A DNA stretch of 64,000 nucleotides from Prochlorococcus sp. AG-347-E23. GTDB taxonomy: Bacteria; Cyanobacteriota; Cyanobacteriia; PCC-6307; Cyanobiaceae. The stretch lies in NCBI GenBank assembly GCA_003281685.1, contig QCBH01000003.1, forward strand, positions 48,234 to 112,233. Direction: 5' to 3'. Both the position numbers and the translations under genes were made by a program. The notes beneath the pieces are model-generated. The model saw nothing but the letters and a program-made list of their open reading frames with translations, ran no database searches and was not told the origin of the DNA. Shown here piece by piece: positions 58,313 to 63,030 of the stretch. Within the stretch, counting starts at the first letter, position 1, and each line of letters starts with the position of its first letter.

Positions 58313-59317
58313 AAAAAAAGACCTGCTAAGTGCAGGTCTTTTAATGTGTGTAAGATTTCTAAATTAAATTTAGATTTAGAAGCTGAATGATGTTTTAACC
58401 ATGATTCCAGTTTCATCTTCATCAGCTGCATCTTCTCCTTCTACAGTGTAAATAAGAGGAGTGATTGTCATTCCGTCATTTAATGCGTATGAATAATATA
58501 CTTCATACATCAATCTTTCAGGCATAACACCAGCGGCTTCAGTCATTGATGAAAAAGTACCTACAGCAGCGCCTAGTTCTCCTGGTCCAACTTCACCGTT
58601 TAATCCAATGAAGTAAGCTTCTGTTTCGTCAGATGCTGCTACCTCATTATCAAGATCACCGATTTCATAACCAGCACTGATGTTTAAACCGCTATCAAAT
58701 GAATAATAACCATTTAATGCTGTGTATGTATCGTTATCAATACCATCTTCACTATTTGCGTAAGTAATAGAAACACCGTAGCTATCAGCTGTGTATGCAA
58801 GGTTTACCGCAAAAGCATCGTCAGTTTCATCGGTAGCAATACCAGTTTCAGTGAATTGAGCACCAACTGCTGTTGTAAATCCATTATCGAAATCATATGC
58901 AGCACCAATAGATATTCCACCACCTGTGATTCCAGCATTTACGTTAGCGCAATCATCAAGTGTGTTAGATGGTCCGCCATAAGCACAAGCTGTGGTAAAT
59001 AGCATACTTCCATCTGTGTTGTCTCCAATGAAAGCAGTCGCTCCACCTAGTGGGAATGTGTATGAAATACCATCGACAGTTAGTGCTTCAGAAGCGCTAT
59101 TAGTGTCGAATTGACCGAGTGAACCACCTGCGTTACCAGCATCAAGAGAGATATCAAGTGAATCTTCTCCAGTGAAACTAGTGTTCAAGTCAATCTGGAA
59201 ACCGTAAGTAGCCTGAAGTTCTTCTTCTCCATCAGTTACTGTAGTTGTGATACCAGCACCATCAACAGCACCGATCGCGAAATCAACTGAGAATGAAGCA
59301 GTTGTTGTTTCTGAGAA
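58313..59317. repeat. 1005-bp direct repeat, copy 2
   Basis: Matches 56997-58001. Confidence 0.92.
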
Positions 59318-59494
59318 GCTACCAGCTTCAACGTTATTTAATCTTGCTTCTAAGCCATCTACACGGCTGTTAGTAATAGCAAGTTGTTCTGCAGGGGTGA
59401 AGTCACTAATAGTTACTTCGTTTGCTGTAGCAGACATAGGTGCTAAAAGACCTAATGTTGCAGGAGCTACAAGCAAGCTTTTGAAAAGCTTCAT
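58376..59494 (-). CDS. som: Outer-membrane porin (Som type), copy 2
   Basis: Start placed at MKLFKSLLVAP (59494); coiled-coil-like N-terminus (RVDGLEARLNNVE), barrel identical to copy 1. Confidence 0.9.
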   Translation of the reverse strand: MKLFKSLLVAPATLGLLAPMSATANEVTISDFTPAEQLAITNSRVDGLEARLNNVEAGSFSETTTASFSVDFAIGAVDGAGITTTVTDGEEELQATYGFQIDLNTSFTGEDSLDISLDAGNAGGSLGQFDTNSASEALTVDGISYTFPLGGATAFIGDNTDGSMLFTTACAYGGPSNTLDDCANVNAGITGGGISIGAAYDFDNGFTTAVGAQFTETGIATDETDDAFAVNLAYTADSYGVSITYANSEDGIDNDTYTALNGYYSFDSGLNISAGYEIGDLDNEVAASDETEAYFIGLNGEVGPGELGAAVGTFSSMTEAAGVMPERLMYEVYYSYALNDGMTITPLIYTVEGEDAADEDETGIMVKTSFSF

Positions 59495-59499
59495 AAATT

Positions 59500-59508
59500 T
59501 CCTCACAC
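59500..59508 (-). promoter_or_regulatory. Yfr1 sRNA seed target site in the porin 2 5' UTR
   Basis: mRNA GTGTGAGGA overlapping the ribosome-binding site. Confidence 0.7.
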
Positions 59509-59534
59509 GAAATTTAAAGTACACCTCAAGATAA

Positions 59535-60311: not shown

Positions 60312-60848
60312 TTATAAATTACATCTGGGTTTATTTTTCCAAACAGGAGAATCACAATTTATATTCCCTAAATTCTTTTTCCTTTCGATTTTATTTGCTT
60401 CAACATTATTGGTAATTTGAGTCACCCAAGCAGGTTCATAAGACTCTCGTGTATAACCCTCAGAACCACTTAAATAACAAAAATAGTTTGCTAATTGATA
60501 TCCGATGTGATCGGGTGTTATTGATTGCCAATTAGCAGCAGCATAATAGCCACCAAGAGCACTATTCATTTTTACTTGAATCTTAGAAGTGAATTTATCG
60601 CAATTTAATCTGACTTTGCCTACATATGACATGATGTACTGTGTTTGCCCCTCAAATTCATCCTTAGTCGCATTTCTTTCCATATAGAATCTTAATTTTC
60701 CACTTTTAATCTCTACATCATTTGTATCTATTGTCCAATTCTTGTTAATTCTTACCCATTTGTTGGGAGATTGACTCTCAGGAATCCCTGCATTAACAAC
60801 ATTAGGTAAAGCAAGAGTAGCTAATAATGGGAGTAGTAAGCGTTTCAT
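60312..60848 (-). CDS. Hypothetical secreted protein with C-terminal CDSPV module
   Basis: Signal peptide MKRLLLPLLATLALPNVVNA; ends INCDSPVWKNKPRCNL. Confidence 0.8.
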   Translation of the reverse strand: MKRLLLPLLATLALPNVVNAGIPESQSPNKWVRINKNWTIDTNDVEIKSGKLRFYMERNATKDEFEGQTQYIMSYVGKVRLNCDKFTSKIQVKMNSALGGYYAAANWQSITPDHIGYQLANYFCYLSGSEGYTRESYEPAWVTQITNNVEANKIERKKNLGNINCDSPVWKNKPRCNL

Positions 60849-61018
60849 TTAAATGTTTTAAGTAAAGCGGGTGTTATCAAACTTCCCGCCTAATTCAAGA
60901 AAACTGTAATGACAATTTAGCGATGATTAGTAATTTTTCCTTAAAAAATCGATTTTTTATCAATATATTTAAAATTTGGTCTTTTATAGATGTCTTTTAT
61001 GAACTAAGATCTTATGAG

Positions 61019-61092
61019 CGGGGCGTGGCGCAGCTTGGTAGCGCGGGTGCTTTGGGAGCACTAGGTCGCAGGTTCGAATCCTGTCGCCCCGA
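61019..61092 (+). tRNA. tRNA-Pro (TGG), encoded CCA to 61095
   Basis: CGGGGCGTGGCGCAGCTTGGTAGCGC-GGGTGC-TTTGGGA-GCACT...GGTTCGAATCC...GCCCCGA-CCA. Confidence 0.97.
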
Positions 61093-61101
61093 CCATTTAA
61101 T

Positions 61102-61129
61102 AGCAAGGGATCCAAGCCCTTGCTTTTTT
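61102..61129 (+). terminator. Intrinsic terminator after tRNA-Pro
   Basis: AGCAAGGG-ATCCAAG-CCCTTGCT followed by a T-run. Confidence 0.8.
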
Positions 61130-61156
61130 ATTTCTAGAGTGTCTCAAATATACAAA

Positions 61157-61203
61157 TAGAGCTAAGAATAGAGCTAGATTCTAATTAAAACTGATTAGCT
61201 CTA
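61157..61203. repeat. Arm-type repeat array at the tRNA-proximal inner end
   Basis: TAGAGCTA at 61157 and 61169 (12-bp period), inverted copy TAGCTCTA at 61196-61203. Confidence 0.75.
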
Positions 61204-61362
61204 AATTTGGTGCTCTATGTTTTATATATTTTATGAAAAACAAATCAAAGCCTAAATAATCAGAATGGGTCGTGTTTAATGCCATGATGGATCAAAACAA
61301 AAGTATCCTCAATCGAGGAACTTACGTTAAAAATGGCAAGTTAAATTTTTTATTATATTTTT

Positions 61363-62742
61363 TTACCAAAATTTAAATATGTTTTCTTTTTCTACGATAT
61401 TCCCACAACTATTTGTATTTTCAGCTTTTCCTGGATTTTCGCTATTAAGAGATCTTAAAATATCCACGATTGAGATCGCAAAATTTAGGTTCTGAGCTCT
61501 ACCTTCGTCTCCAGGCAAACTCCAAGTATTAACTCCAACTACCTCACCATTACTATTAACTAAAGGTCCACCACTATTACCAGGGCTTATAGCTGCATCT
61601 GTTTGTATGAGTGTAACGTAATATGGGACAACATCTTCTAAATCACTCGATGGTTGTCTTACAGCACTTACAATCCCTCTTGTAACTGTTCCTGCCAGGC
61701 CAAGAGGAGATCCAAGAGCAATTACATTTTGACCAGGTCTTGGATATTTACTAAAACAAAGTGGGAGAGCTTTTGAGTTTTTAATATTATTTGCTTGTAT
61801 TAATGCGAAATCAAGCTTTGAGTCCACATAAATAACTTCACCTTGATCTTTCAGACCATCATCTCCAGAGATAGTGAATTCTTTATCGCCCCCGGCTACT
61901 ACGTGCATATTAGTAACAATCAGTCCTTCATTATTAATAAAAAAACCACTCCCTAATCCTGAATCTCCCTCTAATTTGACTACTGAAGGGAGAGTTATAG
62001 ATGCTATTTCCTCTACATCAAGTTTTTTTGAACTAATCGAGGCTCGAGCTATTTCATATTTAGGTTTGTTCCATTCTTTTGTATCTTTCTGGAATAATAG
62101 TTTTAAATTTTTTATTGTCTCTTCTCCAATAGGAATAAATTTATCTGCTAAACCACTATTTGGAATAGCCTTAATTTGCAAATTAATTGATTCATTCTCA
62201 CCCATATTCTTAATTCTTTTTGCAAATCCAGAGGGAAACTGAAATTCACCTCTACTTCCTCTTAATCTAAACCTCTTTTCTCCAACAAATATCTCTATAA
62301 AACCTGGAAAATCATAATATTTAGCACTCTCATAAGTACATGTCCAAAAACCACAACCACCCCATGTCAATATTCTTCCTTCTAATTTATTGGTATTCCA
62401 TTTCGTGACATAACTTTTAACTGCTCCAGTACTAAAATCAGAAACATAATCTCTATCAAAAATTGTTAATTCATAAGAATTTCTAAGAGATGATTTGTAT
62501 TTTATAATTTTGGACCAAGCAATCTTAGGATTTTTCTTTTTCCAATCAACATCTTTTTCATATTCAATCACTTCTAAACCTGTATCCTCATCAATAACTA
62601 CATTTCGCAGATATTTCTCAGTACATCTTTTTTTATTTTTGTGAACAGGAGAATCACAATTAATCTTTACTGCTAATACTTCTGGAATATAAAAAGAACC
62701 TAACCCCAAAAGAATTACTATAGATATAAATTTTCTCATCAA
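61363..62742 (-). CDS. Secreted trypsin-like (S1C/HtrA-like, no PDZ) serine protease with N-terminal extension
   Basis: Signal peptide; triad motifs VTNMHVV, DFALI, GNSGGPL; TVTRGIVSA and IQTDAAI. Confidence 0.92.
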   Translation of the reverse strand: MMRKFISIVILLGLGSFYIPEVLAVKINCDSPVHKNKKRCTEKYLRNVVIDEDTGLEVIEYEKDVDWKKKNPKIAWSKIIKYKSSLRNSYELTIFDRDYVSDFSTGAVKSYVTKWNTNKLEGRILTWGGCGFWTCTYESAKYYDFPGFIEIFVGEKRFRLRGSRGEFQFPSGFAKRIKNMGENESINLQIKAIPNSGLADKFIPIGEETIKNLKLLFQKDTKEWNKPKYEIARASISSKKLDVEEIASITLPSVVKLEGDSGLGSGFFINNEGLIVTNMHVVAGGDKEFTISGDDGLKDQGEVIYVDSKLDFALIQANNIKNSKALPLCFSKYPRPGQNVIALGSPLGLAGTVTRGIVSAVRQPSSDLEDVVPYYVTLIQTDAAISPGNSGGPLVNSNGEVVGVNTWSLPGDEGRAQNLNFAISIVDILRSLNSENPGKAENTNSCGNIVEKENIFKFW

Positions 62743-62884: not shown

Positions 62885-62983
62885 AATCAAAACCATCAAA
62901 ATCTTGTCTCAAATCACCTACAAAACCTAGTATCCCTTGAGAAAATAACTAGAGTCTTACATATTTCTCAAAAGTTAGCACTA

Positions 62984-63030
62984 GTGCTTTGGGAGCACTA
63001 GGTCGCAGGTTCGAATCCTGTCGCCCCGAC
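62984..63030 (+). repeat. Displaced 3' half of tRNA-Pro (att site)
   Basis: 47-bp identity to 61047-61093, starting at the anticodon stem. Confidence 0.95.

Follow-up and report, generated by a model that had tools for sequence, protein, structure and literature searches.

A two-cysteine peptide at either terminus of exported Prochlorococcus proteins: a candidate docking tag

The locus and its two exported proteins

We consider two neighbouring genes in a 64,000-nucleotide stretch of the genome of Prochlorococcus sp. AG-347-E23 (contig QCBH01000003.1, positions 48,234 to 112,233; the whole stretch is referred to as the window). One encodes an exported protein of 178 amino acids, p178, and the other an exported S1C/HtrA-like serine protease of 459 amino acids. 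Both products carry the same short peptide with two cysteines (the tag), placed at the C-terminus of p178 and at the mature N-terminus of the protease. This arrangement had been pointed out in a preliminary description of the window, and the translations of the open reading frames (ORFs) confirm it. At least 15 exported families whose bodies appear unrelated share the tag. The features of the locus are collected in Table 1. The genome of the window has about 31% G+C, and its nearest relatives are high-light strains of Prochlorococcus.

The C-terminus of p178 reads ...GNINCDSPVWKNKPRCNL (given also as ...KKNLGNINCDSPVWKNKPRCNL and ...ERKKNLGNINCDSPVWKNKPRCNL; ORF translation). The protease begins with MMRKFISIVILLGLGSFYIPEVLA|VKINCDSPVHKNKKRCTEKY, where the mature end after the signal peptide is VKINCDSPVHKNKKRCTEKY (given also as VKINCDSPVHKNKKRC), and its translation probably starts from the ATG at 62739, in line with its homologues. 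The likeness extends to the DNA: positions 60321-60359 and 62623-62661 are identical at 33 of 39 bases with an exact run of 18 bp, which again agrees with the preliminary description. The same is true of the position of the two genes relative to the repeats of tRNA-Pro. The 55-nt repeat of the tRNA gene bounds a 1.9-kb element, in which the protease is the sole cargo gene and from which p178 is excluded.

We look at the structure of p178 first. In its AlphaFold model (mean pLDDT 79.5) a beta-sheet with helices is followed by a long helix (residues 140-159) and then by the tag. Protein E of Haemophilus influenzae, a surface adhesin held by an N-terminal lipid anchor, is the best and the sole consistent match to the p178 body in both fold and sequence (PF16747; PDB accession codes: 3zh5, 6gus), and the match is weak. 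The Pfam model Adhesin_E (PF16747) gives 18.6 bits, under its cut-off of 23.7. The top nine Foldseek matches in the PDB are all Protein E with a probability of 1.0, yet with E values of 1e-3 to 1e-2 and TM scores of 0.28-0.51. Unlike Protein E, p178 has no lipobox (its signal peptide ends in ...VVNA|GIPE and contains no cysteine) and bears a C-terminal tag instead.

The protease resembles HtrA, DegS and DegP (S1C) in its catalytic domain, which is of the HtrA type with the triad H280/D311/S390 intact and is matched by PF13365 (Trypsin_2) at E 3.8e-29. In its AlphaFold model (mean pLDDT 74) the N-domain is rich in beta structure and the catalytic domain is like that of HtrA/DegS, and a Foldseek search with the whole model returns HtrA/DegS/DegP protease domains only. 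C-terminal peptides are the classic regulators of HtrA, DegS and DegP, acting through the PDZ domain. Unlike these enzymes, the protease of the window lacks a PDZ domain (there is no Pfam match to one, and the NCBIfam models of HtrA/DegP cover the protease part only, far below their cut-offs), and it has instead a unique beta-rich N-domain of 190 residues and the N-terminal loop. The N-domain is present in 25 of the 285 genomes that make up our genus set, 92 of which are of high quality. The cysteines of the tag, C29 and C40, are invariant across 16 members of the protease family that are 42-95% identical to the window protein in the N-terminal region.

Table 1. Features of the p178/protease locus (positions in the window)
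Feature	Position	Strand	Remarks
p178, 178-aa exported protein	60312..60848	-	ORF; signal peptide, Protein-E-like body, helix, basic linker, C-terminal tag
p178 signal peptide MKRLLLPLLATLALPNVVNA, residues 1-20	60789..60848	-	cleavage site predicted by the -3/-1 rule
p178 body domain, residues 21-139	60432..60788	-	C83 and C124 invariant (family alignment)
p178 C-terminal tag I163-N177, INCDSPVWKNKPRCN	60318..60362	-	15 residues
p178 tag loop C165-C176	60321-60356	-	single residue L178 between tag and stop
tRNA-Pro(tgg)	61019..61095	+	island integration site between p178 and protease genes
Left attachment (att) copy	61039..61093	+	3' part of tRNA-Pro; repeat analysis
459-aa exported S1C/HtrA-like serine protease, no PDZ	61363..62742	-	ORF; Trypsin_2 in C-terminal half
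Trypsin_2 protease domain, residues 264-404	61531..61953	-	H280, D311, S390 (GNSGGP) invariant
Protease beta-rich N-domain, residues ~45-230	62053..62610	-	invariant C130/C135
Protease N-terminal tag I27-C40, INCDSPVHKNKKRC	62623..62664	-	begins two residues past predicted signal-peptidase site
Protease signal peptide, residues 1-24, ending ...EVLA	62671..62742	-	cleavage site predicted
Right att copy	62976..63030	+	partial tRNA-Pro, 55 nt, 95% identical; repeat analysis
382-aa Porin_4 protein	58376-59524	-	just upstream of p178

The tag and the proteins that carry it

The next question is how far the tag extends beyond these two proteins. The genus set is searched with a strict degenerate DNA pattern and with a tag profile of 28 positions. 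The strict pattern has 18 copies in 16 of the 285 genomes, while a reversed control pattern has none in the same 285; in the 1.5-Mb genome of the window the tag pattern occurs in the two places described above and nowhere else. Because of these two results, the shared tag is not a matter of chance. With the profile, the tag is found in 69 of the 285 genomes (32 of the 92 high-quality ones), and a profile search at the level of the family finds it in four of 42 genera, three of them sister genera, all small-genome Prochlorococcus of 1.6-1.9 Mb and including SS120 (protein AAP99670). Over 185,579 prokaryotic species, one genome each, the strict pattern gives 11 loci, all in Prochlorococcus, and the tag is restricted to Prochlorococcus. 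The preliminary description had allowed that the peptide might belong to these two proteins or to one family only, as would be expected of a recent local duplication; the searches find it instead in at least 15 body families. A phage origin finds no support, with no match of the strict pattern in the IMG/VR viral contigs and no match by tblastn in 50,697 INPHARED phage records.

Among 1.84 billion protein cluster representatives, HMMER finds 67 clusters at E <= 1e-3. Carriers that are named in the databases go by "hypothetical protein", "S1C family serine protease" and the like; among the tagged proteins with accessions are ABO17309 (198 aa) and the protease ABO17885 of MIT 9301, and CAE19884 of MED4. 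There is no model of the tag or match to it in Pfam, NCBIfam (run on five carriers) or the PDB sequences, and literature searches found no mention of the tag or signal-peptide strings or of the accessions of the MED4 protease. As far as Pfam, NCBIfam, the PDB sequences and the searchable literature show, the tag is undescribed.

The consensus over 163 carriers is [SAL]-[VG]-[NK]-[IV]-N-C-[DN]-S-P-V-W-K-[NK]-K-P-[RIQ]-C-N, in which C, S and C are fixed by the construction of the search pattern. Of the remaining positions, the proline (162 carriers), the asparagine before the first cysteine (161), the valine (158) and the tryptophan (154) are near-invariant. The loop is C-x10-C, 12 residues with the consensus CDSPVWKNKPRC, a net charge of about +2 and an asparagine on both sides; written as a stand-alone peptide, the two-cysteine tag is GNINCDSPVWKNKPRCN.

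The placement of the tag is as regular as its sequence. When it stands at the C-terminus (C-type carriers, 184 in number), the second cysteine is followed by one residue in 169 cases, by two in 8 and by three in 7. The chain of p178, as that of most C-type carriers, ends one residue past the loop, and no hydrophobic stretch follows the tag. When it stands at the mature N-terminus (N-type carriers), the first cysteine lies 3-5 residues past the predicted signal-peptidase site (...LA|VKINC, ...KA|VEINC, ...SA|EVNC, ...YA|INC). No genuine internal copy occurs among the carriers examined, and the tag end is constant within any one family. In the C-type carriers the tag is usually attached by a linker that is flexible and rich in lysine; over 20 residues it has 28% lysine and arginine, compared with 14% in the bodies, and a net charge of +3.5. 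The tag is a portable, self-contained and strictly terminal add-on module. The preliminary description had spoken of a portable disulfide-loop tag shuffled among island proteins; its portable terminal peptide with two cysteines stands, in at least 15 families that are often island-encoded, and the disulfide itself we only infer.

When the carrier bodies are clustered after masking of the signal peptide, the tag and the first 48 residues, they fall into 15 groups, or into 12 with lighter masking. Most carriers have a Sec-type signal peptide. The C-type carriers include the p178 family (at least 58 clusters), a family of about 200 residues with the signature DFGDADFP...GPKSYHDAWCR, a family of 285-370 residues with the signature GRYI...TSGYS...TNC, and proteins with PDZ domains (P0038, P0039, P0061). 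Several C-type bodies (P0059-P0097; L011, L073, L076) have a second loop module, C[LM]KAxD[FY]xGC[VM] (C-x8-C); it directly follows the signal peptide in otherwise different bodies, giving a cysteine loop at both ends of the chain.

The N-type carriers consist of the family of the window protease with its 16 members, a paralogous protease of 446 residues (27% identical), a Trypsin_2+TPR protein of 541 residues that has only the tag in common with the window protease, and three types with no Pfam match (a family of 255-283 residues, a 305-residue protein and a 294-residue protein). Other N-type carriers likewise have a cysteine no more than four residues from their C-terminal end. The 541-residue proteins (L061, L062, L064; G017, G032, G244) have GMDGGG in place of the GDSGGP of the trypsin fold; they may lack the catalytic serine and hence be pseudo-proteases.

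Signal peptides are a further point of resemblance. Most C-tagged carriers of unrelated families start with a near-identical signal peptide, MKRLLLPLLAALALPTAVNA, and the tagged protease of MED4 (L087:7187-8527) has one of the shared type, MRRFLLPLLAALALPTTVNA, followed directly by AKINCNSPVWKNKPQC. In the genome of the window, p178 and one other ORF (C1, 175 aa) are the only ones with a signal peptide of the MKRLLLPLLAALALPTAVNA type. At the level of DNA, the signal peptides of unrelated carriers have a mean identity of 0.39 and a maximum of 0.90.

While the end is fixed within a family, related bodies may carry the tag at opposite ends. In hhalign, the N-tagged family of 255-283 residues matches the disulfide-bearing core of p178 (GKxxxNC...LAxYFC..TG..GYT) with a probability of 82.6% and an E value of 1e-5, both cysteines being aligned. 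This match needs a profile of six tag-trimmed bodies, since a single N-tagged sequence of 270 residues aligned by its tag only.

Two carrier families contain members with and without the tag. The DFGDADFP homologues of the LLIV strain MIT 1318 and of contigs of larger genomes are tagless and end in ...PPITDWKEKTTE (...DWKEKTTE), and those of high-light Prochlorococcus (MIT 9301), SS120 and marine metagenomes are extended by the linker and the tag. The p178 family includes tagless members of 149 residues; its bodies diverge down to about 41% identity with the tag almost unchanged. Some DFGDADFP members end otherwise, in an acidic tail, ...SPMDMD, or in this tail preceded by a variant loop, CTNGTWNKNHPRC (P0243, P0247, P0282, P0295, P0349), which suggests that picocyanobacteria may have several interchangeable C-terminal tails.

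Is it the peptide or the DNA that is kept? The codons of the tag vary at synonymous sites at nearly every position. Between unrelated carriers of different genomes the DNA of the tag has a mean identity of 0.80 (maximum 0.96), and the flanks are at a background of 0.29-0.30. Synonymous sites vary and the flanks are at background identity, so that selection, which is strong and purifying, acts on the tag peptide and not on the DNA. The 33 identical bases of 39 and the exact run of 18 bp in the window might at first suggest a recent local duplication or a chance match, or that each gene overlaps a DNA or RNA element. With a mean identity of 0.80 between unrelated carriers, the match in the window needs no recent copying. 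Local duplication is thus ruled out: tags of unrelated carriers commonly match this well at the level of DNA, and the flanks of the two copies show no relationship. A conserved DNA or RNA element is ruled out by the synonymous variation, and the silent reversed control speaks against chance, so that we regard this whole group of explanations as refuted.

The strictly terminal placement, at either end, would also fit a partner-less end cap, that is, a stapled proline-containing loop that shields the chain ends from exo- and tail-specific periplasmic proteases, or serves as a folding nucleus. A polar C-terminal Cys-Asn would be a poor signal for tail-specific proteases, and the cysteine near the C-terminus of other N-type carriers may be counted in favour of a cap. 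An end cap, however, has no need for 11-12 near-invariant residues (W, K, N, K and P among them) kept from the high-light strains to SS120 in at least 15 families, and tagless homologues persist in two carrier families. We consider such a cap quite unlikely.

Mobile cassettes and the question of an enzyme-partner pair

We turn to the reason why p178 and the protease are found side by side. An element 96% identical to the protease element of the window is present in another genome (G001), where it is one among stacked cassettes bounded by partial copies of tRNA-Pro, and in MIT 9314 (G010) a homologue of p178 itself lies within a cassette bounded by such copies. Further carrier genes have tRNA-Ser(tga) at a distance of about 0.75 kb or tRNA-Asn at about 2.8 kb. 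Known Prochlorococcus islands are bordered by tRNA genes, with tRNA-Pro(tgg) and tRNA-Ser(tga) among them (bioRxiv 10.1101/2020.12.28.424599). The two genes of the window are neighbours because both occupy the tRNA-Pro island, and their adjacency is best explained by this shared integration hot spot. The cassettes are small and integrase-less, and they can form stacks with 4-5 partial tRNA-Pro copies at a spacing of 0.7-2.6 kb (L079, G001:C1:1083000-1098000; L082, G010:C1:30000-46000).

Decayed carriers are numerous as well. They include ORFs of 20-45 residues with nothing but linker and tag, and tags with in-frame stops upstream (G124, G126, G114, G073 and G278; L008/L023, L009/L042, L045), and one product of 43 residues (P0102) is made up of a signal peptide, the linker and the tag, and nothing else. 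So many remnants of the tag point to a rapid turnover of carrier genes. A product like P0102 could also be seen as the precursor of a released cyclic peptide, in which case all carriers would be precursors of a disulfide-cyclised signal or bioactive product of about 15 residues, and the asparagines on both sides of the loop could be counted in its favour. The carriers, however, are large and folded, with individually conserved domains that include enzymes; no maturation genes are nearby, the N-terminal copies are flanked differently, and P0102 and the remnants of 20-45 residues resemble gene decay. We find a released peptide very improbable.

The preliminary description had further raised the possibility of an enzyme-partner relation between the two neighbouring proteins. 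If this were so, C-tagged proteins and tagged proteases should be found together. C-tagged proteins occur in 17 of the 92 high-quality genomes and a tagged protease, from any of the three families, in 16; both are present in 3, with the two classes assigned manually from the genome search matches. Chance alone would give three such genomes (Fisher odds ratio 1.0, p = 1). Individual genomes give the same picture: the complete genomes of MIT 9314 (G010), G028 and G044 have C-tagged proteins without a tagged protease, MED4 and others the reverse, and in MIT 9301, where the orthologue of the protease is named "S1C family serine protease" by NCBI, the C-tagged gene and the tagged protease gene are 464 kb apart. 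The enzyme-partner proposal is not supported because the odds ratio is 1.0 across the 92 genomes, C-tagged proteins and tagged proteases being distributed independently; an obligate protease-substrate pair in particular is ruled out by the absent co-occurrence together with the separation in MIT 9301. Nor does the AlphaFold model of the protease, in which the loop is of low confidence, give support for a docking of the loop on the enzyme.

A looser connection with proteases has to be weighed at this point, in which the loop is an element of recognition, activation or inhibition for proteases of the trypsin fold. At the N-terminus it would act as a pro-segment or pseudo-substrate, and at the C-terminus as a degron, an activator (as the C-termini of outer-membrane proteins are for DegS) or an inhibitor loop. 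Three trypsin-fold families carry the tag at the N-terminus, and the tagged proteases have no PDZ domain, the usual reader of C-terminal peptides, with PDZ domains present in some of the C-tagged proteins (P0038, P0039, P0061). The constrained loop with proline, lysine and arginine also recalls the Bowman-Birk and SFTI inhibitors. The inhibitor loop of Bowman-Birk and SFTI, however, has nine residues, C-T-[KR]-S-x-P-P-x-C, and the C-x10-C loop of the tag differs from it in length and sequence. Non-proteases make up at least three of the N-type families, 14 of the 17 good genomes with C-tagged proteins have no tagged protease and 13 of 16 show the reverse, and the structural model does not bring the loop into contact with the active site with any confidence. 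We therefore hold a protease-linked loop to be unlikely.

A candidate docking tag

We tentatively favour, at somewhat under an even chance, the reading that the tag acts as a docking knob, closed by a disulfide, for some conserved core component in the envelope. After export, the two invariant cysteines would be oxidised to give a disulfide loop of 12 residues; a gene of the VKOR family is present in the genome of the window, so that oxidative folding is possible. The closed loop would present a rigid, basic, tryptophan-bearing knob at the free end of the chain, and this knob would bind one conserved core partner in the envelope, which might be a receptor protein or else an anionic polymer, for example lipopolysaccharide (LPS) or a wall polysaccharide. 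Docking would thereby hold diverse periplasmic and surface proteins, several trypsin-fold proteases included, at one place. The partner should be core-encoded because the carriers are single-gene mobile cassettes, because the tag is near-identical from the high-light strains to SS120, and because no accessory gene tracks the tag. With a core-encoded partner, an acquired cassette of a single tagged gene would work without further genes, and the two genes of the window would be two clients of one address system at the same tRNA-Pro hot spot. The weak likeness of the modelled p178 body to an outer-membrane surface adhesin, with the tag in place of a lipobox, may also be counted for docking, as may the positive charge of the loop and of the C-type linker.

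Several known systems provide points of comparison for such a knob. The dockerins of cellulosomes (PF00404) are likewise portable modules that end many unrelated secreted proteins, enzymes included, with many clients for one socket. They are, however, duplicated calcium-binding loops of 60-70 residues with a cohesin partner, whereas the tag, some 15 residues long, lacks a calcium motif and has no Pfam match. In the type IVa pilins (e.g., PilA of Pseudomonas aeruginosa), the D-region is a disulfide loop of 12-17 residues that lies 1-2 residues from the C-terminus and forms an exposed binding epitope. Unlike the tag, the D-region is part of the pilin fold; the tag is transferable and has no sequence likeness to it, and its carriers are not pilins: their bodies are unrelated, and most of them have ordinary Sec-type signal peptides in place of the class III (prepilin) leader. 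Thanatin, the "Rana box" peptides of frogs and the loop of the anti-LPS factor, all from animal defence, are small cationic disulfide loops that bind LPS. The tag resembles them as a basic loop with two cysteines and an aromatic residue at the end of a chain, and it is plausible by analogy that it sticks to the anionic outer membrane as they do; it differs from these free peptides in being attached to a protein and has no sequence relationship to them.

Several observations weigh against docking. The protease loop (residues 21-40) is of low confidence in the AlphaFold model (pLDDT 47-54), and the tag of p178 is modelled with moderate confidence only (pLDDT of about 70). The polybasic linker is not universal; in the family of the window protease the segment after the loop has a net charge of -1.6. 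Finally, the trypsin fold is over-represented among the N-type carriers (three of about six families), which could indicate a role specific to proteases.

Instead of a static anchor, the loop could be a sorting or export signal that is read by a machine, for outer-membrane export, for the loading of vesicles or for the choice between periplasm and thylakoid lumen. Short C-terminal sorting signals are known in LPXTG/sortase, PEP-CTERM/exosortase, GlyGly-CTERM/rhombosortase and MYXO-CTERM, and may include an invariant cysteine (bioRxiv 10.1101/2023.06.07.544157). Like these signals, the tag is short and restricted to one lineage and closes the chain of many Sec-exported proteins that are otherwise unrelated, and the near-identical signal peptide on most C-type carriers hints at a common route. 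In purified vesicles of Prochlorococcus (MIT9312, MIT9313), protease activity and a large number of putative enzymes are reported (PMC9298688), which would agree with a cargo of this kind. Unlike these signals, however, the tag has two cysteines and is not followed by a transmembrane helix, a hydrophobic segment or a basic tail, and it also stands at the mature N-terminus, where the known C-terminal signals are not known to act. No exosortase (PF09721), the one sortase-type family searched for, is found in the genome of the window, and no candidate machine came to light. A sorting signal, too, seems to us unlikely.

We return to the docking knob in a more specific form that we regard as possible, if doubtful: a display system, in which the knob would plug exported proteins, many of them encoded by islands or cassettes and several of them proteases, into one core receptor of the outer membrane or of vesicles. 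If this were true, the product of an acquired single-gene cassette that brings the knob along with the shared signal peptide would reach the surface of the cell or vesicle at once, without dedicated machinery, and the flexible genome would have in the tag a minimal "plug-and-play" interface similar to that of the dockerins. No photosynthetic cell on Earth is more abundant than Prochlorococcus, and the flexible genes of its islands, most of them unannotated, are thought to shape its interactions with phages, grazers, vesicles and nutrients. One peptide that unites at least 15 exported families in about a quarter of the sampled genomes provides a handle for annotating hundreds of "hypothetical" proteins. 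As an unusually small portable terminal module that is found at either end of the chain, it opens the questions of how exported proteins are placed and retained in the envelope or in vesicles, and how single-gene cassettes work on arrival.

One carrier departs from the usual mode of export. A C-tagged ORF of 228 residues (L072, G045:C1:1409500-1413700) has no N-terminal signal peptide and contains an internal hydrophobic helix, SLFILLAIFVGVIGIA, which would put its tagged C-terminal tail outside the cytoplasmic membrane.

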